Shown: positions 14,149-55,431, numbered from the stretch's first letter. The stretch is 59,011 nt of DNA from an uncultured Dehalococcoidia bacterium (GCA_964431885.1 CAYSLK010000138.1:1-59011), one strand, 5' to 3'. The notes: generated from the letters alone by a model not told the origin. Translations and numbers: made by a program.

Positions 14149-15777
14149 ATGGTACTAATGAGAGGATCACAACTCCTAGTGAATCAATTGTATTCAGAAG
14201 GAATAGACACAGTATTTTCACTTCCGGGCGTTCAAATCATGTCCGTCTTTGATAGTTTATATGAATTCAGAGATAGGATTAGATTAATTCAAACAAGACA
14301 CGAACAGGCTACTACTTATATGGCTGACGGATACGCTAAAGCTAGTGGTAAGCCCGCCGCGGCTATCGTTGTACCTGGTCCTGGACTGTTAAACGCTACA
14401 GCTGGTCTAGGTACAGCCTATTCTTCTTCATCTCCTGTTTTACTCATCTCTGGTCAGATTCAAAGTGACTCCATAGGAAAACAGAAAGGGGAACTGCATG
14501 AAATCGACGATCAACTGGATATTGTCGAACCTATTACCAAATGGAACCAGCGAGTCACGAAAACAGAAGATATACCTGAGGCAATCCATAATGCAATGCA
14601 TGAATTAAAAACAGGGCGTCCCAGACCGGTAGAATTAGAAATACCGTATGATTTCCTAACTGATACAGTCGAAACGAACCTTATGGCACCATCAGAATAT
14701 CCTCGCAAGGAAGGTTCACAAAACAATATTCAAAAGGCTGTGCAGTTATTGTCCAGTTCTGAAAATCCCACTATAATCGCCGGCGGCGGTACAACTATCT
14801 CGGATGCTTCAAGTGAATTATTAGAGTTGGCGGAACTTCTTCAAGCGCCTATTCTTACAACTAACCAGGCAAAAGGGATAATACCAAGTGATCACTATCT
14901 CAACATGGGAACAGAATTTGCGGGATTAGGCCCTGGAGAGAGAATCATCCCCTACAGTGATGTTGTAATCGGAATAGGTACTCGATTCATGACTGATTTT
15001 ACTATTAATAAAGAGCAAAGGATTATCCAGGTAAATATAGATCCAGATGAGTTAGGTAGGAATACTCGATGTGATATAGGAATCTTAGGAGATGCCAAAA
15101 CCATTGTCAGACAGATTCTAAATAATCTCCAATCTAGAGTAAAACAGAGACGATCGCGTAAAGATAGCATGATTCAACAGAAAAAGGAGTACAGGAAAGA
15201 GCTAAAAGAGATAGCACCAGCTCAAATGGAAATAGTAGAAATACTCCAGAATACACTGCCAGGAAATTCCATTCTTGTAGGTGGTATTACCAATGCAGCT
15301 TACTGGAACCATTTAGCATATGAGGTACGTAATCCAAGATCATATTTAACCTCGTCTTATTTTGGCACCCTAGGTTATGCTTTCCCGACCGCGTTAGGTG
15401 CGAAAATTGCACAACCTGAAAAACCCGTAGTCTCAATTTCCGGGGACGGTGGTTTCATGTTCAGTGCTCAGGAATTATCCACCGCCGTGAAATACAAAAT
15501 TAATATCGTTGCCCTGGTATTTAACAACAATGCATATGGAGCGTCTAGAAGAGATCAGACTGACAATTATGAAGAACGTTACATAGGTACAGATCTGTTT
15601 AACCCTGATTTTAAAGCGATGGCTGAATCATTTGGGGCCATAGGATTAAGATCAGATATAAAAGGGCTACCTAAAACTTTGGATATTGCGCTGAATGCGA
15701 ATGCCCCGGTCCTATTAGAAGTTCAAGTACCCATAATGCCAGTACCATCGCCTTCACTTAGAACGGAGAACCACTAA
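14149..15777 (+). CDS. thiamine-diphosphate-dependent enzyme (acetolactate synthase large-subunit-like), paralogue 1
   Basis: N-terminal Pyr domain (RHEQATTYMADGYAKASGKP, VPGPGLLNATAG) and C-terminal PP domain (ISGDGGFMF...NNNAYG). Confidence 0.9.
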   Translation: MVLMRGSQLLVNQLYSEGIDTVFSLPGVQIMSVFDSLYEFRDRIRLIQTRHEQATTYMADGYAKASGKPAAAIVVPGPGLLNATAGLGTAYSSSSPVLLISGQIQSDSIGKQKGELHEIDDQLDIVEPITKWNQRVTKTEDIPEAIHNAMHELKTGRPRPVELEIPYDFLTDTVETNLMAPSEYPRKEGSQNNIQKAVQLLSSSENPTIIAGGGTTISDASSELLELAELLQAPILTTNQAKGIIPSDHYLNMGTEFAGLGPGERIIPYSDVVIGIGTRFMTDFTINKEQRIIQVNIDPDELGRNTRCDIGILGDAKTIVRQILNNLQSRVKQRRSRKDSMIQQKKEYRKELKEIAPAQMEIVEILQNTLPGNSILVGGITNAAYWNHLAYEVRNPRSYLTSSYFGTLGYAFPTALGAKIAQPEKPVVSISGDGGFMFSAQELSTAVKYKINIVALVFNNNAYGASRRDQTDNYEERYIGTDLFNPDFKAMAESFGAIGLRSDIKGLPKTLDIALNANAPVLLEVQVPIMPVPSPSLRTENH

Positions 15778-17399
15778 TGGTTAAACTAACCGGAGCCGAA
15801 GCCCTTGTACAACAATTACAAAAAGAAAAAGTAACTACTATCTTCGGGTTGCCAGGCTTCCAGATCATGGAAGTGTTTGATGCTCTCTACGGAGCTCGCG
15901 ACAAAATTCAATTAATACATACTCGCCATGAACAAGCAACCTCCTTCATGGCTGATGGATATGCTAAAGTTACAGGAAAACCAGGTGTTGCCTTAGTCGT
16001 TCCAGGGCCGGGTGCTCTCAATGCAAGTGCTGGTATCGGAACCGCCTATGCATCGTCATCGCCAGTTCTCTTAATCTCAGGGCAAATACCAAGAGCATCC
16101 CTTGGTTTAAGAAAAGGTGAAACACACGAAATTGAGGATCAACTCGACTCATTTCGAGCTATAACGAAATGGAATCATCGTGTAGAAAAAGTTGCCGAGA
16201 TTCCAACCGCTGTAAATGAAGCAATCAGGCAATTAAAATCAGGACGGCCTCGTCCTGTAGAATTAGAAGTTCCTTTCGATTTATTCAAGGATTCATCTGA
16301 AGTTGCATTGATAGAGCCTGCGGTTCTTCCTGCCAATCGCGCCCAAACAAGTGATATTACCAGGGCAGTAGACATGCTTATCAAATCCAAGAACCCGACC
16401 ATTATCGCTGGCGGTGGAGCAATAATTGCCAATGCAACAACAGAATTGACAAACCTAGCCGAATTTTTTCAGGCTCCTGTAATAACAACACAAAATGGGA
16501 AAGGTATAATACCAGAGACTCACCATCTTTCCGTTGGAGTGAATTATTACACATTAGGTCCTTCCAAATTGGTTGGCCCTAACTGTGACGTAATTCTTGC
16601 AGTTGGGACTCGTCTTCTCTCAGATCTCCATATCAATAGTTCAACCAAAATAATTCACATTGATATTGACGCATCTGAAATTGCTAGGAATTATCCAACA
16701 CAGACAGAAATCAGTATAGTATCAGACGCGAAGAATGCTTTAGCACAGATGTTACAACAAGCGCAGCGTCTCGACCATCCCAAGCCATCCAGGACCAAAG
16801 AAGTAAATCAATATAGGACGCAATTCAAGAAAGAGATCCGTCTATATGCTCCTGAACAAATGAGCATAATAGACACATTAAGATCCGAACTCAACGACGA
16901 TGCAATCGTCGTCAGTGGAATAACGAACATAGGGTATTGGAGTCATCTAGGCTATCCAGTAAGCCACCCAAGATCCTATATTACATCCTCCTATTTCGCC
17001 ACTCTAGGATTCTCTTTTCCAACAGCCCTCGGAGCAAAGGTTGCCCATCCAGATCGTCAAGTGGTAGCTATTTCTGGAGATGGAGGATTCATGTACTCGT
17101 TTCAAGAGCTTTCAACAGCTGTTAAATATGGAATTAATGTCATCATATTGTTATTTAATAATAATGCCTACGGGGCATCAGAATGGGATCAAACTCACAG
17201 GTACAATAAACACTATCTTGGTACTGATCTGCACAATCCAAACTTCGTTAAATTAGCAAATTCGTTTGGGGTTCAGGCTATAAGGACGGACAGCAACGGC
17301 TTTAAATCTGGCCTCAGAAAAGCATTGAAAGTCGACGCTCCCGTTCTCCTAGAAGTTACTATCCCAACGATGATGCCGCCTTTTCAAATTGTGCAGTAG
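15777..17399 (+). CDS. thiamine-diphosphate-dependent enzyme, paralogue 2
   Basis: Same domain pattern (RHEQATSFMADGYAKVTGKP, ISGDGGFMY...NNNAYG). Its start overlaps the upstream stop (TAATG). Confidence 0.9.
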   Translation: MVKLTGAEALVQQLQKEKVTTIFGLPGFQIMEVFDALYGARDKIQLIHTRHEQATSFMADGYAKVTGKPGVALVVPGPGALNASAGIGTAYASSSPVLLISGQIPRASLGLRKGETHEIEDQLDSFRAITKWNHRVEKVAEIPTAVNEAIRQLKSGRPRPVELEVPFDLFKDSSEVALIEPAVLPANRAQTSDITRAVDMLIKSKNPTIIAGGGAIIANATTELTNLAEFFQAPVITTQNGKGIIPETHHLSVGVNYYTLGPSKLVGPNCDVILAVGTRLLSDLHINSSTKIIHIDIDASEIARNYPTQTEISIVSDAKNALAQMLQQAQRLDHPKPSRTKEVNQYRTQFKKEIRLYAPEQMSIIDTLRSELNDDAIVVSGITNIGYWSHLGYPVSHPRSYITSSYFATLGFSFPTALGAKVAHPDRQVVAISGDGGFMYSFQELSTAVKYGINVIILLFNNNAYGASEWDQTHRYNKHYLGTDLHNPNFVKLANSFGVQAIRTDSNGFKSGLRKALKVDAPVLLEVTIPTMMPPFQIVQ

Positions 17400-33142: not shown

Positions 33143-33172
33143 ATTGCAAATTGCAATCCGCGAATTACGGAT
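33143..33172 (+). promoter_or_regulatory. two overlapping inverted repeats upstream of the methyltransferase cluster (candidate operator)
   Basis: ATTGCAA-A-TTGCAAT is a perfect 7-1-7 palindrome at 33143-33157. ATCCG-CGAATTA-CGGAT is at 33156-33172, ending 27 nt before ATG 33199. Confidence 0.25.
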
Positions 33173-33198: not shown

Positions 33199-34086
33199 AT
33201 GACAAACACTTTGACAATCATAGAAAGACTAGAAAGAGGGGATATTTTAATATCCGATGGAGCCACTGGCACTTATCTTCAAGCCCACGGGCTTGAACCT
33301 GGCGGTTGCCCGGAAGAATTTAATATTAGTCATCCTGAAATTATAAGACGCATGGCTCGCGAATACTTTGACGCAGGATCAGACTTGGTTCTAACAAATT
33401 CATTCGGTGGCAACAGATTTATGCAAGAGAAATACGGCTTAGGCGACAAGGTAAAAGAAATCAATCGTTTAGCAGCTGAACATGCAAAGAGCCAAACTCC
33501 ATCCGGTTGTTATGTAGTGGGTTCAATCGGCCCCACAGGCGAATTTCTGGAGCCACTTGGGCCGGTAACAGAAGAACAGATGCTAAACGCTTTCACAGAA
33601 CAAGCATGCGCCCTAGAAGAAGGAGGTGCTGATGCTGTAGTTATAGAGACACTTACTTCTATCGAAGAATGCGTTCTGGCAATAAAAGCTGCGAAGGAAA
33701 ATACAAAGCTGACAGTTATGGCTACCCTAACCTATGACAAAGGGCCAAGGGGTTTCTTCACTATGATGGGGGTAACACCTCAAATAGGAGTTACTGCTTT
33801 GAAAGAAGCAGGAGCTGATGTAATAGGTGCCAACTGTGGTAATGGGATAGACGTAATGGTCGAATTGGCCGCTGAGTTACGAGCTGTTACAAACGACTAC
33901 CTACTAATCCACTCAAACGCAGGAATACCATCTCTGCAAAACGGTGAAATAATATATCCCGAATCACCTAACTACATGGTCGATGGATTTCTACAATTAG
34001 TGGATCTTGGAGTAAATATACTAGGCGGCTGTTGCGGTTCGAATCCTGAACATATCAGAGCCTTAGCCAAGGCTATAAAAAATTGA
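33199..34086 (+). CDS. homocysteine S-methyltransferase-domain protein (MetH N-terminal / BHMT / MmuM type)
   Basis: ILISDGATGT, LVLTNSFG, and the Zn-ligand cysteines in GANCG and LGGCCGSNPEHI. Confidence 0.85.
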   Translation: MTNTLTIIERLERGDILISDGATGTYLQAHGLEPGGCPEEFNISHPEIIRRMAREYFDAGSDLVLTNSFGGNRFMQEKYGLGDKVKEINRLAAEHAKSQTPSGCYVVGSIGPTGEFLEPLGPVTEEQMLNAFTEQACALEEGGADAVVIETLTSIEECVLAIKAAKENTKLTVMATLTYDKGPRGFFTMMGVTPQIGVTALKEAGADVIGANCGNGIDVMVELAAELRAVTNDYLLIHSNAGIPSLQNGEIIYPESPNYMVDGFLQLVDLGVNILGGCCGSNPEHIRALAKAIKN

Positions 34087-34141
34087 ATCATTTTACTATC
34101 ATAAGATGAAATCTCTCGAATAGTAGGGGAAAGGAATTCTA

Positions 34142-34819
34142 ATGACTCTTGGTAAAAACGAAATATCGTATCAAGTCTACGACGTCCTGAACCGATATGG
34201 AACATGTGTTGAACTGATACCAGTAGACAAATATTTTCACGATATTACTATCGGTCTTTATCTAAAAAATAAGGTTTGCACTGTATGGACATTCAGTAAA
34301 CGACAAGGTGTTCATGAGAGAATTCTTCAAATCAGAAATCAGCTAGTCTCCCTTGGAGGAATGGTCCCAGTTGACGGAACCCACAATCAAGCTGAGTTCT
34401 CCTGCGGATATTTACACTTCAGACCTGCTAAATTTCTACTCAACCAAGCTGTAAATAAGAGCCCAGAATATTCTGCAAGTAATAATCCAATGACCATTAG
34501 AGATACGAAGAGTACATTGACTATCCAAGCAGTCGCTGTACAAAGAGATGATCAATGGGTCTACCAGATAGCTGGAAAGGGTGAAGCGCCCAACAAAGCC
34601 ATACGTATTCGGATGATAGTCGCAGGTTTCATTCGATATGGTGAAATGAATAAGGTTAATGACACGGAAGTATCCTTTTCCTGTGGCCAGCGTCACGATG
34701 ACATAACCAGGCTGTTACTGCCTTTTTCACGGAACATTTCTAGCGTGGAAAGCATGATCGCCGCAGAAGCTCTACGAGGTCAAATGACTACTGGCACTTT
34801 AGGTTTCACCCCGATCTAA
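34142..34819 (+). CDS. hypothetical protein with internal duplication (two FSCG..H repeats)
   Basis: 225 aa. MVPVDGTHNQAEFSCGYLHFRPAKFLL (residues ~74-100) and MNKVNDTEVSFSCGQRHDDITRLLL (~169-193) are clearly related repeats. I recognise no family. Confidence 0.6.
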   Translation: MTLGKNEISYQVYDVLNRYGTCVELIPVDKYFHDITIGLYLKNKVCTVWTFSKRQGVHERILQIRNQLVSLGGMVPVDGTHNQAEFSCGYLHFRPAKFLLNQAVNKSPEYSASNNPMTIRDTKSTLTIQAVAVQRDDQWVYQIAGKGEAPNKAIRIRMIVAGFIRYGEMNKVNDTEVSFSCGQRHDDITRLLLPFSRNISSVESMIAAEALRGQMTTGTLGFTPI

Positions 34820-34904
34820 CCCAACTGTAAACAACTTATTTGCTTTTATAGCCAGACTTCAACTTAACAGACCATGTTTTTACAAACATTGAGGAGGCCA
34901 TTAC

Positions 34905-35942
34905 ATGCCCACCAGTGCAACAATGACACCAAGAGAGCGAGTTTTAAACGCCCTGTCCGGCTCTCCTGTCGATCGTACTCCCGTAGCCAATCCAACAAGT
35001 GTGGCGACCGTAGAACTCATGGATATGGTGGATGCTCCATTTCCTGGCGCATGCCGTGATCCCGAAATGGCTGCTCGTCTAGCAGCTACGGGTCATACGA
35101 TACTGGGATTCGATTCCGTAATGCCGTATTTCACTATTATTCAGGAGTCTTCTGCGTTAAATTGTGAAATGCAGTGGGAAGGGAAAGATAATTGGCCAAC
35201 AGTGCGCATGTACAATCCGATTTGGAGAGGTCCTAACGACATCTCAATACCTCCCGATTTCCTTGATCATCCTGATAATCAGACAATCACCAAATCAATT
35301 GCGATGTTAAAGTCGGAATTTGGCAACGAAGTTGCAATAATAGGGAAAACTATGGGCCCATGGACACTAGCTTACCATGTATTTGGTGTGGAAAGTTTTC
35401 TTTTAAGTACTGTTGATGACCCTTCACTAGTTAAAAAAGGATTGAATAAATTGAAAGAGATTTCTATTCTCTTTGGGGAAGCACAAATTGACGCTGGGGC
35501 AGATATACTAACTTTTCCTGATCACGCAACAGGAGACTTAGTTAGTGGCGATTATTACAGAAGATTTCTTCAAGAACTGCACGTGGAAATGGCTGAACGA
35601 CTCTCAGTACCCCTAATTCTCCATATTTGCGGTAATACGCTCGACAGAATGAAATATATTGCTGAAACCGGCATGGCGGCTTTCCATTTCGATTCTAAGA
35701 ATGATCCTCAGTTAGCTATGGACGCAGTTGAAGGCAAAATAGCTATGGTTGGTAACATAAATAATCCTGAAACCCTGTACGCCAGAGGACCTGAGGAGGT
35801 TCGAGAGGAAGTATTCAGAGCTTTAGACGCTGGCGTAGATTTAATTGCTCCAGAATGTGCGATTCCTCTGGCAACGAAACTCGAAAATCTTCTTGAAATT
35901 CCTAGATCAGTAATAAAATGGCATGAAGAACGGGATGGATAG
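34905..35942 (+). CDS. uroporphyrinogen-decarboxylase-family methyltransferase (MtaA/MtbA/MtsA-like, Zn-dependent methylcobamide:thiol type)
   Basis: MTPRERVLNALSG.PVDR.P N-terminus, Zn motif LILHICGNT (H-x-C) and a distal Cys in APECAIP. RBS GGAGG 7 nt upstream. Confidence 0.85.
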   Translation: MPTSATMTPRERVLNALSGSPVDRTPVANPTSVATVELMDMVDAPFPGACRDPEMAARLAATGHTILGFDSVMPYFTIIQESSALNCEMQWEGKDNWPTVRMYNPIWRGPNDISIPPDFLDHPDNQTITKSIAMLKSEFGNEVAIIGKTMGPWTLAYHVFGVESFLLSTVDDPSLVKKGLNKLKEISILFGEAQIDAGADILTFPDHATGDLVSGDYYRRFLQELHVEMAERLSVPLILHICGNTLDRMKYIAETGMAAFHFDSKNDPQLAMDAVEGKIAMVGNINNPETLYARGPEEVREEVFRALDAGVDLIAPECAIPLATKLENLLEIPRSVIKWHEERDG

Positions 35943-36143
35943 TCCCTATCACACTATAGAGTCCGTACTTCCAAAGGTGATTATTTTTCAAATGCCTAAT
36001 CTATTGCTTCAAAATCACATCTTTCCAATACAAAGTGGCTAGATTTAAATTTAACTGATAAAATCTTTTATGATCATCAATGTCTATTTATAGATGACCA
36101 CAATCTATGGAGGTCTATACCTAAATGGTGGGGAAGAAAACAA

Positions 36144-36887
36144 ATGCCCATTACACATGATGGTTTGAAGAAGGAATTTGAATATATCGGTAAGCCCTTT
36201 GAGTTGAATCACATCCAAAGTCTATTCAACGACTCCGACCCATTAATGCACGAAATGGCTCACAACCTCATAATAGGCAATCAACACGAAGTAGATCGTC
36301 TAACAAAAAAAGCTCTTGACTCAGGGTTTTCCGCTAATACTATCCTAGACGATGGTCTCATATCTGGTATGGCTATTGTCGGGATTAAATTTAGAGACAA
36401 TTTTATTTTCGTCCCTGAGGTTTTAGTGGCGGCTCGTGCAATGAAAGCAGGGATGGCACACTTGGAACCTATATTGTCAGCCTCTGGTATAAAACCAATT
36501 GGCACTATCATAATGGGTACCGTAAAGGGCGATCTGCACGACATAGGTAAAAACCTTTGCATCATGATGCTAAGAGGAGCCGGATTCACTGTTCACGATC
36601 TCGGAGTTGACACCACATCAGACACATTCATTGAAGCGGTATCTGAACACAATGCTGATATTTTAGGAATGTCAGCATTGTTAACCACAACCATGCCTAA
36701 TATGGGCAAGACTATAGAAGCATTTGAAGAGTTGGGGCTACGTTATGAAGTTAAAATCATGGTCGGAGGTGCTCCATTGACACAAGAATTCGCCGATGAT
36801 ATGGGTGCCGATGGGTACGGACAGGACGCTATATCCTGCGTAGATCTCGCTAAAACATTTGTAGGCATCCAGACATTAAATCAATAG
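36144..36887 (+). CDS. corrinoid (cobalamin-binding) protein, MtaC/MtbC-like
   Basis: B12-binding motifs GDLHDIGKN (DxHxxG), MSALLTTT (SxL) and MVGGAP (GG), preceded by a helical cap domain. Confidence 0.9.
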   Translation: MPITHDGLKKEFEYIGKPFELNHIQSLFNDSDPLMHEMAHNLIIGNQHEVDRLTKKALDSGFSANTILDDGLISGMAIVGIKFRDNFIFVPEVLVAARAMKAGMAHLEPILSASGIKPIGTIIMGTVKGDLHDIGKNLCIMMLRGAGFTVHDLGVDTTSDTFIEAVSEHNADILGMSALLTTTMPNMGKTIEAFEELGLRYEVKIMVGGAPLTQEFADDMGADGYGQDAISCVDLAKTFVGIQTLNQ

Positions 36888-36923: not shown

Positions 36924-37166
36924 ATGCGGCAAGAAGTTGATAAGGAAAGTTACAAAGCCAGTATAGAACGTCTTCATGATATCTTCAAAGACATGTCTAA
37001 AAGTGTTGACAAAGTGTCGCGTTGGCGCTGTCCATACAAGAATGCGAAAGATAGATGTACCGCTAATTTCGGCTGTCGAAACCAGGATCGAGACGTAACA
37101 CCAGGTACCTTATACATTTGCAATGATAATAACGAATTAGACTACCGTAGCGCTTGGGAAATCTAA
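36924..37166 (+). CDS. hypothetical small four-cysteine protein
   Basis: 80 aa with WRCPYKNAKDRCTANFGCRNQ...YICND (C-x7-C-x5-C-x14-C). Begins 36 nt after the corrinoid protein gene. Confidence 0.5.
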   Translation: MRQEVDKESYKASIERLHDIFKDMSKSVDKVSRWRCPYKNAKDRCTANFGCRNQDRDVTPGTLYICNDNNELDYRSAWEI

Positions 37167-37364: not shown

Positions 37365-37697
37365 GTGATGAAGAAGGATCGCTCTCCGACACTGAAAGAA
37401 ATCGGTGATTTGATTTCCCATTCGCTAGATGCGGGAATTAAGTTGAAACGCTTACAAGGCTTTGACATAGACCTTTCAGCTAATAAGGATTTTCACAAAG
37501 TATTTTTTTCAGCCATATGCTCGTGTGGTACTGCAGCTGTACTTAGCGTAGAGGTTTCCAATAATAAAACCATGAATGAAATCAAACGCGCGCTCCCGTC
37601 ACTAGTAAATAAACTCACAGTTCAGAGTGAAATGTTCTATCGTATGTCCTGCGACATGCACAAGAAAATGCGGAGCGGTCTCACAGACAAACTCTAA
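37365..37697 (+). CDS. hypothetical protein
   Basis: 110 aa ORF (GTG 37365 or ATG 37368 after GAGG). Contains a CSC motif. No family recognised. Confidence 0.45.
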   Translation: MMKKDRSPTLKEIGDLISHSLDAGIKLKRLQGFDIDLSANKDFHKVFFSAICSCGTAAVLSVEVSNNKTMNEIKRALPSLVNKLTVQSEMFYRMSCDMHKKMRSGLTDKL

Positions 37698-37727
37698 ACA
37701 CCAAGATCTCTTGATAAAAGGATTAAC

Positions 37728-38165
37728 ATGGCAAGGCGTCCAAAAAAGCAATTTACAGAGGCAGAGGCATTACAACGAGCCAAAAAGTTTTCCGAAGGCT
37801 ATGTTAAAAAAGGTCCGTACGAATTTTTCCCCGAACAAGATGTTGTTCAGGTGGTGCAAGAAGGATTGGGAGAAAATGAAAGGAAATTCGGATATCGTTA
37901 TTGCCCTTGAATGCCCCTAAGCGGTGATCCCGTCGAGGATCGCAAGAAAATATGTCCTTGTGAGCGTCATCATGAAGACATAGAACGAGATGGATTCTGT
38001 ATATGAATGTTTTTTGTAAGCGAAGAGTTTCTTCGCAAGTATGAATCTGGGGAAGATTTCAGCCAAACTATAGACGAGGCTGTTCCGCTTGGCGAAGAGT
38101 TGTTTGGCGAGGGTGGAGGCAAACGAGAGTTCAACGATAAAAAACGTAAACAAGCTTCAGAATAG
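37728..38165 (+). CDS. ferredoxin:thioredoxin reductase catalytic-subunit-like protein, predicted selenoprotein with two Sec (TGA 37908-37910 and 38004-38006)
   Basis: Reading through the two in-frame TGAs gives a 145-residue protein, KKFSEGYVKKGPYEFF..VVQVVQEGLGENERKFGYRYCP-U-MPLSGDPVEDRKKICPCERHHEDIERDGFCI-U-MFFVSEE... It is collinear with the FTR catalytic chain (..KFSEQYA.R..TYF...VI.GLA.HK..LG.PLCPCRHY..NCPCVPMRERKECHCMLFL). The TGAs fall on the second Cys of the first motif and the second Cys of the third motif. RBS AAGGA lies upstream of ATG 37728, and a stem-loop follows each TGA. Confidence 0.8.
37924..37943 (+). promoter_or_regulatory. SECIS-like stem-loop for TGA 37908
   Basis: 7 bp stem GUGAUCC/GGAUCGC (one G-U pair) with loop CGUCGA. 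20 nt separate the UGA from the loop, and G is the second loop base. Confidence 0.55.
38020..38036 (+). promoter_or_regulatory. SECIS-like stem-loop for TGA 38004
   Basis: Perfect 7 bp stem GCGAAGA/UCUUCGC with loop GUU. 20 nt separate the UGA from the loop, and G is the first loop base. Confidence 0.6.
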
Positions 38166-38206
38166 CTTAACATTTATTATATAAGCAAATTGAAAGGAAC
38201 GAAGTC

Positions 38207-38455
38207 ATGGAAGATACAGGAGTTCAAGTTTATAGCTCCAACGGCTGAGGTCCCTGCCAAATGGTGAAGGTGTACCTTTCACGAAAGGGAATTCCATTTG
38301 AGGAATTTAATGTGTCATTAGACAGAGAAGCATTGACACGGCTGGTTAAAATGGGTTACAGAACGACACCCGTTGCGATTATTGGTAACGAGAAGGTAGT
38401 TGGATATAGCCCTTCCAAACTCGATTCTGCATTGAATACCGCCGGGCTGAGTTGA
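38207..38455 (+). CDS. NrdH/glutaredoxin-like redoxin, predicted selenoprotein (Sec at TGA 38246-38248; active site U-G-P-C)
   Basis: ATG 38207 (RBS AAGGA about 8 nt upstream) gives MEDTGVQVYSSNG-U-GPCQMVKVYLSRKGIPFEEFNV..TPVAIIGNEKVVGYSPSKL. It is collinear with NrdH/Grx (IYT..DCVQC...L...G..FE..NV...LPVV....GF.P), with the TGA at the first Cys of CxxC. The ORF track only reports the part after the TGA (38261..38455). Confidence 0.8.
38264..38282 (+). promoter_or_regulatory. SECIS-like stem-loop for TGA 38246
   Basis: Stem GUGAAGG/CC(U)UUCAC (7 bp, one bulged U) with loop UGUA. 22 nt separate the UGA from the loop, and G is the second loop base. Confidence 0.5.
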
Positions 38456-53150: not shown

Positions 53151-55013
53151 CTAACGTAGGATACGTACATCTCCTACACGACGAGTAATCCGTTCTTTAT
53201 CTAAATAATCCATAAGGGCCAAAGCATATTTACGACTCGTTCCAAATATATCCCTAACGTTAGCGATAGTTATCTGACCGTGTTCGTTGATATGTTTACC
53301 AATTCCGTCTACCATTTCCACATATGCCGACATGGAAAATGTAACACTATCACTTACTCTGACTACTTGACCTTGATCAACAAGAGCGTTCACCACTTCC
53401 GGATCGATTATTACATCAGTAGGCGGTGCGAATCTATCCGATTCCAGCAAACTTATATATTGCCCTACAACTTCTTGATGTAACTCACTAAAACTAGGAC
53501 TGTGTCCAGTGAGCCTAACTATGGCACCACTTTCAACTATATTCAATTCTCTTACAAGCATGGCCAGTATTTGATTAAATATTTGAGGTGTTATATCTAG
53601 CCTACTGCGAACCTCCTCTTTGGGAGCTCCTTGACGTAAAGGAAACTGTGCATGATAACGCTTCAAATATTCTACGGTCTCCTGCACAACACTATCGAAT
53701 CCTGTCTTTGTATATAAGTAGTCACCTGGTTTGACAACTTTCTGCCCAAGTACAACCACTAAACTATCTGATGCCATGCGATCTATTATATTTTTTGCAT
53801 ACTCGAACTCAAGATTAGCCTTGGAAACCAGCTCGCTAAACTCACAAGGCTCTGACATTTCTATAGTTTTTAGAATTATATCGCTTTCAGACCCTTTAGA
53901 CATAGTCTCCAGTCTGCTCAGGGTAGGGGAATGCATTCTCCTATGACGACGAGCATGAGTGTCCACAATAGTTCCACCACCGAGTGTAGTTCTATTTGAC
54001 CTTACAACAAAATAATCACCCTTTACCACTGCGATCGGAGAATTCAATTTAAGTTGTGCCCACGTAATATCTCCTGGATTGGAACGTTGTTTATCAAGTA
54101 AACGAACTTTTGCTATCACTTCGTTGCTTCCAGAATGTACAGTTACAAACATGTTATGCGATATAGGAAATTGCGAGTCAGTCACAACTCTCAAACTGAC
54201 ATCAATCGCCATAGTAGGATTTAACCAGCCTGGAGATGCCATCACTTCGCCTCGGCTAATTTTATCCGGGGATATACCACTCAAATTGGCGGCCACACGA
54301 TTCCCTGGTAAAGCGTGAGTCTGATTCCGTTTGTGTGTTTGTAACCCTCTTATACGGGTCTTCTCCCCAGACAACACTAACTCCATTTCAGTACCAATAG
54401 TTAAAGAACCATCTGTTAGAGTTCCGGTTACTACCGTACCAAATCCTTGTACAGTAAACGATCGGTCAATAGGGAGGCGTGGCCTCCCTAGACTGCGCTT
54501 TATGGGGACATCTTGTAACAGGTTATCAAGTTTTGAAATTAGCAAAGACATGCCCTCGCCTGTTACACCCGAAACTCTCAAGACTGGAATTCCTTCCATT
54601 GTCGTACCTTGGAGAGCTTCGTTAATATCACCTTCCACTAGATCAAGCCAATCACTATCAACAAGATCACTTTTTGTTAAAGCTACCAAGCCATGTTTGA
54701 CCTGAAGAAGATCCAATATCGCTACGTGTTCCCTCGTTTGAGGCATCACCGATTCGTCAGCAGCTACTACTATCAAAGCCAGATCTATACCACCAATGCC
54801 TGCTAACATATTATTTATAAAACGCTCGTGGCCGGGAACATCAACAATACTTACTTGGTTGCCGCTAGGCAAATCGAGCCAAGCAAAACCCAAGTCGATA
54901 GTCAATCCTCGTTCTTTTTCTTCGACGAATCTATCTGGATCTATTCCAGTAAGTCTCTCAACTAGAGTTGACTTACCATGGTCTACATGACCAGCAGTCC
55001 CCACAACATACAT
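53151..55013 (-). CDS. selB: selenocysteine-specific translation elongation factor
   Basis: GTAGHVDHGKSTL, DVPGHERF and TKSDL GTPase motifs, EF-Tu-like domains II/III, and a C-terminal winged-helix tail (RDIFGTSRKYALALMDYLDKERITRRVGDVRIL). ATG 55013 has GGAG 7 nt upstream; the ORF-track ATG is at 55028. Confidence 0.9.
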   Translation of the reverse strand: MYVVGTAGHVDHGKSTLVERLTGIDPDRFVEEKERGLTIDLGFAWLDLPSGNQVSIVDVPGHERFINNMLAGIGGIDLALIVVAADESVMPQTREHVAILDLLQVKHGLVALTKSDLVDSDWLDLVEGDINEALQGTTMEGIPVLRVSGVTGEGMSLLISKLDNLLQDVPIKRSLGRPRLPIDRSFTVQGFGTVVTGTLTDGSLTIGTEMELVLSGEKTRIRGLQTHKRNQTHALPGNRVAANLSGISPDKISRGEVMASPGWLNPTMAIDVSLRVVTDSQFPISHNMFVTVHSGSNEVIAKVRLLDKQRSNPGDITWAQLKLNSPIAVVKGDYFVVRSNRTTLGGGTIVDTHARRHRRMHSPTLSRLETMSKGSESDIILKTIEMSEPCEFSELVSKANLEFEYAKNIIDRMASDSLVVVLGQKVVKPGDYLYTKTGFDSVVQETVEYLKRYHAQFPLRQGAPKEEVRSRLDITPQIFNQILAMLVRELNIVESGAIVRLTGHSPSFSELHQEVVGQYISLLESDRFAPPTDVIIDPEVVNALVDQGQVVRVSDSVTFSMSAYVEMVDGIGKHINEHGQITIANVRDIFGTSRKYALALMDYLDKERITRRVGDVRILR

Positions 55014-55431
55014 ATGGTGACTCCACATTTCAAAGTGATCCTAAGAATAGCATAGGCATCGTTTAGGGGCAATTTGATAAACATTGGTCGTCCCTACCAA
55101 ACGTCCAATAACTTTAGAAGATGCTAATAAGAAGTAACCTAATAGGCTGGCATCTCTTTATCTTGTATTTTCATGTATAAAGGATCTGAATAGTCTCACC
55201 TCTAATTGTCCAATGAAGAATCAAGTTAATCTTCTCTGATAAAAAAGAATACTGTGTCGCTACAAAATCTATATCGTAGGTGCATACATACATGTGGACT
55301 CATTAGCTTTCATAGCATACAATCCTATCTAGACATGTAATATAGAAAGCGTTGCCACCAAGCCAAGAATCTATTACTAGCTTTTATTGACTTGGCCATT
55401 AAAGCCATCCCGTGAATTAGGAGGATGATAA

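Follow-up and report, generated by a model that had tools for sequence, protein, structure and literature searches.

A conserved methyl-transfer cluster in a SAR202 genome

The stretch of DNA analysed here, referred to as the window, comprises 59,011 nucleotides (nt) from an uncultured Dehalococcoidia bacterium (GCA_964431885.1, CAYSLK010000138.1:1-59011). It is contig C138 of a 2.06-Mb metagenome-assembled genome (MAG) of 95.7% completeness, and the genome-wide searches described below cover this assembly (G000). The window carries five consecutive genes whose products include a homocysteine (Hcy) methyltransferase, a zinc methyltransferase of the uroporphyrinogen decarboxylase (UroD) family and a corrinoid carrier, together with two proteins of 225 and 80 amino acids (aa), named here unk225 and c80 (Table 1). 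SAR202 bacteria are among the most abundant in the dark ocean, and their methionine supply and use of B12 matter wherever the marine cycles of sulfur, one-carbon compounds and cobalamin are modelled.

Table 1. Genes of the methyl-transfer cluster, with positions counted from the first letter of the window
Product	Position	Strand	Family or remark
Homocysteine S-methyltransferase, MetH N-terminal type, 295 aa	33199..34086	+	PF02574
unk225, 225 aa	34142..34819	+	family-less; conserved in relatives
MtaA/CmuA-family zinc methyltransferase, UroD fold, 345 aa	34905..35942	+	PF01208, TIGR01463
Corrinoid (B12) carrier protein, 247 aa	36144..36887	+	PF02607 + PF02310
c80, 80 aa, four-cysteine	36924..37166	+	conserved in relatives

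The gaps between these genes are, in order, 55, 85, 201 and 36 nt. To describe how far the arrangement is conserved, 80 loci from distinct species genomes of SAR202/Dehalococcoidia (L numbers) were compared. Gene order was Hcy methyltransferase, unk225, MtaA-like enzyme, corrinoid protein, c80, on a single strand throughout, and the five genes were found in 75, 79, 80, 73 and 71 of the loci, respectively. Directly after the c80 gene, 44 of the 80 loci carry a RamA/RACo-type activase gene, and a compact six-gene version that includes this downstream activase is present in L098, a genome from another class of the phylum. Moreover, 21 of the 80 loci have a PF00809 pterin-binding protein (355 aa, 69.5 bits) encoded between the MtaA-like and corrinoid genes. 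An earlier note on this DNA had described the Hcy methyltransferase, the UroD-family enzyme and the corrinoid protein as a three-gene set. All three lie where it had placed them and belong to the families it had named (PF02574; PF01208; PF02607 and PF02310, by hidden Markov model (HMM) assignment), and their synteny in relatives is strong (75, 80 and 73 of the 80 loci). The set itself had been drawn too small: the conserved unit consists of five genes plus a RamA-type activase, so that unk225, c80 and the activase had been overlooked.

Families and zinc ligands of the three enzymes

The Hcy methyltransferase matches PF02574 with 215 bits (cut-off 22) over model positions 1-283 of 283. Its zinc motifs, GANCG at residue 210 and GGCCG at residue 276, contain Cys213, Cys278 and Cys279, all three invariant in 74 orthologues. 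The nearest solved relative is the homocysteine domain of Thermotoga maritima MetH (1Q7M, 172.6 bits), with much lower scores against BHMT (81.6 bits) and the S-methylmethionine-type enzyme 5DML (42.9 bits). The genome encodes no other PF02574 protein. From its similarity to the MetH module and the synteny of its gene with that of the corrinoid protein, we propose that this enzyme would catalyse the exit step, from methyl-corrinoid to homocysteine.

The MtaA-like protein scores 210.7 bits against PF01208, passes the cut-offs of the MtaA/CmuA subfamily narrowly (TIGR01463, 235.9 against 235.4; PRK06252, 246.5 against 244) and misses those of the MtaA/MtbA equivalogs (NF040654, 229.8 against 400; NF041608, 192.8 against 600). 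With Methanosarcina MtaA (4AY7) it shares 32% identity at about 176 bits, compared with 31-48 bits for true UroDs in the PDB. Identity with uroporphyrinogen decarboxylase (HemE) was ruled out by the TIGR01464 model (68.5 against a cut-off of 302.95). The assignment to the MtaA type made in the earlier note is therefore correct at the level of curated HMM cut-offs and of the MtaA structure sequence (4AY7), on which our placement was based. The motifs LHICG at residue 239 and PEC at residue 316 align with the ligand motifs of MtaA, and all 81 sequences compared have the corresponding His240, Cys242 and Cys318. Orthologues are 75-95% identical across the 80 loci, making this the most conserved gene of the cluster. 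Homologues number in the thousands, the best of them (77-83% identical) from SAR202/Dehalococcoidia MAGs. A plasmid collection searched for characterised bacterial relatives (CmuA) returned only hemE-type matches, 24-28% identical. No other PF01208 gene is present in the genome, and we propose that its product catalyses the entry step, in which a donor's methyl group is passed to the Co(I)-corrinoid. Two MtaA-like copies in tandem, 66-78% identical to the query, occur in six related genomes (G055, G059, G060, G097, G098 and G127), which suggests diversification of the donor-side enzyme.

The corrinoid protein matches both PF02607 (70 bits) and PF02310 (95.6 bits) above their cut-offs, and bears the His-on motif DxHxxG as DLHDIG at residues 130-135, with His132 invariant in 72 orthologues. 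Its nearest models are those of MtgC/MtbC, below their cut-offs (TIGR02370, 187.1 against 215.3; MtgC, 210.9 against 370). As the single PF02310 match, it is the only protein with a B12-binding domain encoded in the genome.

Two proteins without known families and a relocated activase

Neither unk225 nor c80 could be assigned to any family of Pfam or NCBIfam, even with all 28 aligned members and E-values up to 5. Where present, the unk225 gene always lies 5' of the MtaA-like gene (79 of the 80 loci), and in a sample of 301 genomes of the phylum its copies were found linked to the cluster only. From 1.8 billion representative proteins, a profile search retrieved no more than 245 clusters. The AlphaFold2 model (mean predicted local distance difference test score (pLDDT) 83.7, predicted template modelling score (pTM) 0.76) is an internally duplicated alpha/beta protein whose two similar halves each follow the order beta-beta-beta-alpha-beta-beta-alpha; compared with PDB folds it gave no match at E ≤ 0.001, the best E-value being 0.09. 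Each half contains one F-x-C-G-x-x-H motif, with Cys88, His92, Cys181 and His185 nearly invariant. Two orthologues (L072 and L090) have lost all four residues together, which points to one metal site common to them. The C-terminal 15 residues (RGQMTTGTLGF) hardly vary and are modelled as disordered, a combination that would be typical of a flexible tail docking to a partner. We propose that unk225 acts as a partner of the MtaA-like enzyme. A distant second group of relatives, of about 210-220 aa (P0264, P0269, P0271, P0275 and P0284), ends in a different tail, RGVLxAPSAQ, and retains both motifs in the form F-x-C-G/R-x-x-H.

The c80 protein is predicted to begin with a long helix (residues 7-32; AlphaFold2 pLDDT 73.7), followed by four cysteines spaced C-x8-C-x5-C-x14-C. 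These residues (Cys36, Cys45, Cys51 and Cys66) and the surrounding motif RCPY..CTAxFxCRNQ..C..DYRxAW are invariant in 26 sequences. All of its 772 homologues are unnamed proteins of Chloroflexota/Dehalococcoidia, with no relatives found outside the lineage, and comparison of the AlphaFold2 model with the PDB yielded no fold match at E ≤ 0.001. Its cysteines make c80 a candidate metal-binding accessory protein.

In relatives, the c80 gene sits between the corrinoid gene and the activase. The genome studied here has its own activase (Fer2, Raco_middle and RACo_C_ter domains) at C108:10550-12205, unlinked to the cluster. Together with an adjacent 2-hydroxyacid dehydrogenase gene (C108:10550-13241) it forms the same pair that lies 3' of the c80 gene in L035 and 14 other loci. 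As the downstream pair of the relatives is now on C108, the break in this genus is directly after the c80 gene. The breakpoint is filled by an open reading frame of 110 aa and two selenoprotein genes (37365-38455), which form a genus-specific module.

Methionine and folate genes elsewhere in the genome

The earlier note had described the system as one without folate-binding module and without a substrate methyltransferase of the MttB or MtaB type. Regarding folate, the only Pterin_bind (PF00809) match in this genome is FolP, which adjoins FolK, and a tblastn search of this genome with the pterin module of the relatives found nothing, confirming the claim for this genome. Regarding the substrate methyltransferases, it is confirmed in part: the 95.7%-complete assembly contains no member of the MttB family (PF06253), and no cluster protein matches MtaB (PF12176), the rest of the genome not having been searched for PF12176.

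MetH is absent from this genome, which also has no MetH activation domain. A gene for methylenetetrahydrofolate reductase (MTHFR) adjoins FolD on C78, and two adjacent overlapping genes on the minus strand of C187 (1782-3757) code for MetE-type proteins of 335 and 323 aa. The product of the upstream gene is the better match to Meth_synt_1 and lacks His-x-Cys, and that of the downstream gene comprises a complete catalytic domain (279 bits). Such a two-gene arrangement has been called split MetE (PMC7857596), and is presumably the folate-dependent methionine synthase of this genus. In a sample of 151 genomes of the order, 42 contain orthologous pairs, and most of these 42 lack the corrinoid cluster. 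The genome contains three more core-MetE-like paralogues of 342-363 aa (C52:3431-4459, C26:18472-19563 and C124:27428-28501), which have kept the H-x-C and C-G zinc motifs; the single corrinoid protein could also serve these.

The pterin module is complementary to other methionine synthases

The distribution of the cluster was followed in these 151 genomes (G numbers), which are related to each other and mostly MAGs, so that the counts given here do not represent independent events. The presence of MetH was scored from reading-frame length in a PF02574 search, among the matches listed, in which MetH-type matches are the top-scoring ones. The MtaA-like gene was present in 75 of the 151 genomes, on an all-or-none basis by family. 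The pterin module was found in 56; each of these also has the MtaA-like gene, in nearly every case beside the module. None of these 56 genomes showed a MetH-length reading frame among the matches listed, and just one (G053) has a split MetE orthologue. The other 19 carriers lack the pterin module. Among the matches listed, 12 of the 19 have a full-length MetH (1173-1346 aa; one is a 566-aa fragment at a contig end), four have split MetE (this genome, its congener G009, G049 and G054), and three have neither (G031, G081 and G040). The absence of a folate module emphasized in the earlier note thus applies to this genome and is the minority state among the sampled carriers, 56 of 75 having an in-cluster pterin module.

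Such complementarity suggests that the pterin module, the carrier and the Hcy enzyme would constitute the housekeeping methionine synthase, a split MetH, where no other exists, and that wherever an alternative folate-dependent synthase is available the pterin module alone has probably been lost, the other five genes being kept and highly conserved. Since this five-gene remainder is kept beside MetH or split MetE, it should have a function of its own, one that needs homocysteine methylation. The MtaA-corrinoid-homocysteine part would accordingly have a role independent of folate.

One of the three genomes with neither enzyme is G040. Assembled in one contig and 99% complete, it encodes an S-adenosylhomocysteine hydrolase, and therefore homocysteine is produced. 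It has no MetH (among the matches listed) and no MetE-family gene, and its pterin enzymes are FolP-FolK only. It does have a second stand-alone Hcy methyltransferase besides the one in the cluster. The cluster and this second enzyme are the only candidate for homocysteine remethylation in G040.

A proposed corrinoid relay to homocysteine

Read from the genes only, the cluster would encode a relay in which a methyl group from a non-folate donor, probably sulfur-bound, passes through the B12 carrier to homocysteine and gives methionine. We assign to this reading a probability of about one half. In such a relay, the RamA/RACo-type ATP-dependent activase would hold the B12 protein in the Co(I) state, and the MtaA-like enzyme, with its His-Cys-Cys zinc site and probably with unk225 as a partner, would transfer the methyl group from the donor to Co(I). 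The likeliest donors would be methyl thioethers or methylthiols (methanethiol, dimethylsulfide, methylmercaptopropionate) or a selenium analogue. The MetH-type enzyme would then form methionine by methylating zinc-activated homocysteine at the expense of methyl-Co(III). The four-cysteine c80 protein may act as an accessory, possibly in electron transfer or in docking during reactivation. In most relatives, the pterin-binding methyltransferase of the operon would also link the carrier to methyl-tetrahydrofolate (methyl-THF), making the system a split MetH; this link would have been lost in this genus.

We infer the entry direction of the MtaA-like enzyme from the precedent of MtsA and MtpA and from the lack of any other known loading enzyme in module-less genomes, and the S- or Se-methyl class of the donor from the His-Cys-Cys site, its sole basis. 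Enzymes of the MtaA family are known to demethylate thioethers onto corrinoid proteins, as described for MtsA and for MtpA (bioRxiv 10.1101/548461). Within the UroD family, the His-Cys-Cys zinc site is a mark of enzymes acting on S- and Se-methyl groups, and MtaA-like clusters have been proposed to lead from methyl-S or methyl-Se compounds to methionine (PMC10418091). Roseobacters provide examples of modular corrinoid hubs in which one carrier is common to several methyltransferases (PMC12478193).

The sequence of transfers drawn in the earlier note, from donor through MtaA-type enzyme and corrinoid protein to homocysteine, remains the best-supported reading, with the set being kept beside MetH or split MetE. 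Its suggestion of dimethylsulfide (DMS) or dimethylsulfoniopropionate (DMSP) as substrate was purely inferential, and the operon has no conserved neighbour with a role in transport or catabolism. We further suggest, tentatively and at somewhat less than even odds, that the MtaA-like enzyme and unk225 form a new donor module through which SAR202 would obtain methionine from methylated sulfur (or selenium) compounds without folate, as the sole remethylation route in some complete genomes (G040).

Several observations weigh against the relay from a non-folate donor. As MTHFR and a split MetE candidate are present, the relay is not required for methionine in this genome; the earlier note's idea of a route around methyl-THF is thus upheld regarding the absence of MetH, and undermined by the presence of a split MetE on C187 and of MTHFR, which leave no need for such a bypass. 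A homologue of MTHFR is likewise kept in G040, G031 and G081, where no known methyl-THF methyltransferase was found, so that a folate link of an unrecognised kind may exist there. Genes that could be tied to a donor (transporter, lyase or catabolic enzyme) were not found conserved beside the operon in the related loci, the MtaA-like enzyme may act at the exit and not at the entry, and the relatedness of the sampled genomes limits the value of the counts above.

Alternative readings of the cluster

The reversal of the MtaA-like step deserves attention, as its closest characterised relative, MtaA, runs in that direction (with coenzyme M). The enzyme would then be a methyl-corrinoid:thiol methyltransferase acting on sulfide, methanethiol, mercaptopropionate or another cofactor, with the carrier loaded by the pterin module or by the Hcy enzyme acting on a sulfonium such as S-methylmethionine. 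Thiolate activation by the His-Cys-Cys zinc site would fit this chemistry (PMC10418091), and an inflow of methyl-THF is available in the 56 genomes with a pterin module. However, the 19 module-less carriers, this genome included, have no known enzyme to load the carrier: they lack the pterin module, and MttB is also missing from this genome, in which MtaB was searched for among the cluster proteins only. Moreover, the Hcy enzyme is nearest to the MetH module (172.6 bits) and not to the S-methylmethionine (42.9) or betaine (81.6) types, and we know of no PF02574 enzyme that loads a corrinoid. We therefore regard this reversal as rather unlikely. A distinctly less favoured possibility is that the MtaA-like enzyme, alone or with unk225, is an unrecognised methyl-THF:corrinoid methyltransferase, the cluster being then a complete split MetH. 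Kountz and Balskus raised this possibility for MtaA-like proteins (PMC10418091). The 75-95% identity of the MtaA-like orthologues is what would be expected of a housekeeping enzyme, and G040, G031 and G081 combine MTHFR and S-adenosylhomocysteine hydrolase with no recognised methionine synthase that uses methyl-THF. On the other hand, the genuine pterin module beside the MtaA-like gene in 56 of the 75 carriers would be redundant, and 16 of the 19 module-less carriers have MetH or split MetE, as if the MtaA-like enzyme could not substitute for them. To our knowledge, no UroD-fold enzyme binds folate, and the His-Cys-Cys zinc site points to sulfur or selenium chemistry.

The two selenoprotein genes 3' of the cluster raise the question of selenium salvage, in which methylselenol or dimethylselenide would be demethylated to provide selenide for selenoproteins and the methyl group discarded onto homocysteine. 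MtaA-like clusters of anaerobes have been linked to the use of methyl-selenides, and methylation of selenide in vitro has been shown for one enzyme of this kind (PMC10418091). In addition, SelB is encoded 16 kb downstream (53151-55028, minus strand) and SelA elsewhere in the genome (C144:14119-15201). Nevertheless, the selenoprotein neighbours are confined to the same genus (1 of the 80 loci), and SelA is present in 136 of the 151 genomes of the order irrespective of the cluster. Selenocysteine use is thus near-universal in this lineage and shows no specific co-occurrence with the cluster, making salvage of selenium a very unlikely function.

Comparison with known corrinoid systems

Among characterised systems, the split MetH and MtgBCDE systems of Phaeobacter inhibens and Ruegeria pomeroyi (PMC5764234, PMC12478193) share with the SAR202 cluster a separate MtgE-type enzyme, a separate MtgC and a RamA-type activase. 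The MtgBCDE hub likewise uses one carrier for several methyltransferase modules, and most SAR202 relatives also have an equivalent of the pterin module MtgD. Unlike MtgBCDE, the genome studied here has no pterin module and no MttB-family MtgB, with an MtaA/CmuA-type enzyme instead; the lineage-specific unk225 and c80 are integral to the cluster, and no cluster protein matches DUF1638 in a Pfam scan. The cluster therefore works like a split-MetH/MtgBCDE hub, yet it is outside that set as defined here because the genome lacks both the pterin module and the MttB enzyme.

The methanogen MtaA, MtsA and MtpA systems likewise combine a UroD-fold zinc enzyme with His-x-Cys...Cys ligands, a DxHxxG corrinoid protein and an ATP-dependent activase. 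In contrast to them, the cluster described here is bacterial, and its acceptor module is a MetH-type homocysteine methyltransferase and not coenzyme M chemistry. With the type 1 mlp clusters (PMC10418091) it has in common the His-Cys-Cys site and a proposed demethylation of methyl-S or methyl-Se compounds ending in methionine. However, type 1 mlp clusters encode two or three distinct MtaA-like proteins and belong to strict anaerobes, mostly Firmicutes, whereas the SAR202 cluster has one MtaA-like gene, a homocysteine methyltransferase gene of its own and genes for two new proteins, with an activase that is present and unlinked here. Identity with a type 1 mlp cluster was rejected on the basis of the single PF01208 gene of the genome. 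Finally, the core methionine synthases MesA-MesD (PMC7857596) also lack a folate-binding domain and take the methyl group for methionine from a methyl-corrinoid protein, but these have the MetE fold, and the SAR202 Hcy enzyme has the fold of the MetH N-terminus.

Among the papers of the library searched, none was found to connect SAR202 with an MtaA-type enzyme. The elements added here are the complementarity of the pterin module to MetH and split MetE, the case of G040, the split MetE, the displaced activase gene and the selenium comparison, whose outcome was negative. If the proposed relay operates, aerobic marine bacteria would have a new way of making methionine, with methyl groups from a non-folate donor, and methylated sulfur compounds would have a possible sink. 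In any case, with two protein families lacking known relatives or fold matches, the operon offers a well-defined target for biochemistry.

Neighbourhood of the cluster and minor observations

Around the 80 loci, no conserved neighbour that would name a substrate was found besides the core genes, the activase and the 2-hydroxyacid dehydrogenase. In most relatives (L014-L092), small toxin-antitoxin-like or mobile cassettes are inserted within the operon, both between the unk225 and MtaA-like genes and between the MtaA-like and corrinoid genes, with order and strand of the core unchanged. Pairs of DUF433 and DUF5615 proteins occur in about 50 of the 80 loci, and Uma2 and Fic proteins were also found; the window itself contains none of these cassettes.

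No credible riboswitch or other RNA element was found near the cluster, and scans of the cluster for promoters and terminators gave scores no better than those of shuffled sequence. A perfect palindrome, ATTGCAA-A-TTGCAAT, is located at 33143-33157, 42 nt 5' of the first gene, and is only partly retained at the congeneric locus L013 (ATTGCTTGTTGCAAT); no regulator could be assigned to it. Farther away in the window, positions 14149-17399 are occupied by a tandem pair of thiamine-pyrophosphate enzyme genes (products of 542 and 540 aa) that follows a D-2-hydroxyacid dehydrogenase gene, and beyond the pair lie genes for two amidases, a luciferase-like monooxygenase and a member of the enolase superfamily, a mixture of enzymes typical of the catabolic paralogue families of SAR202.

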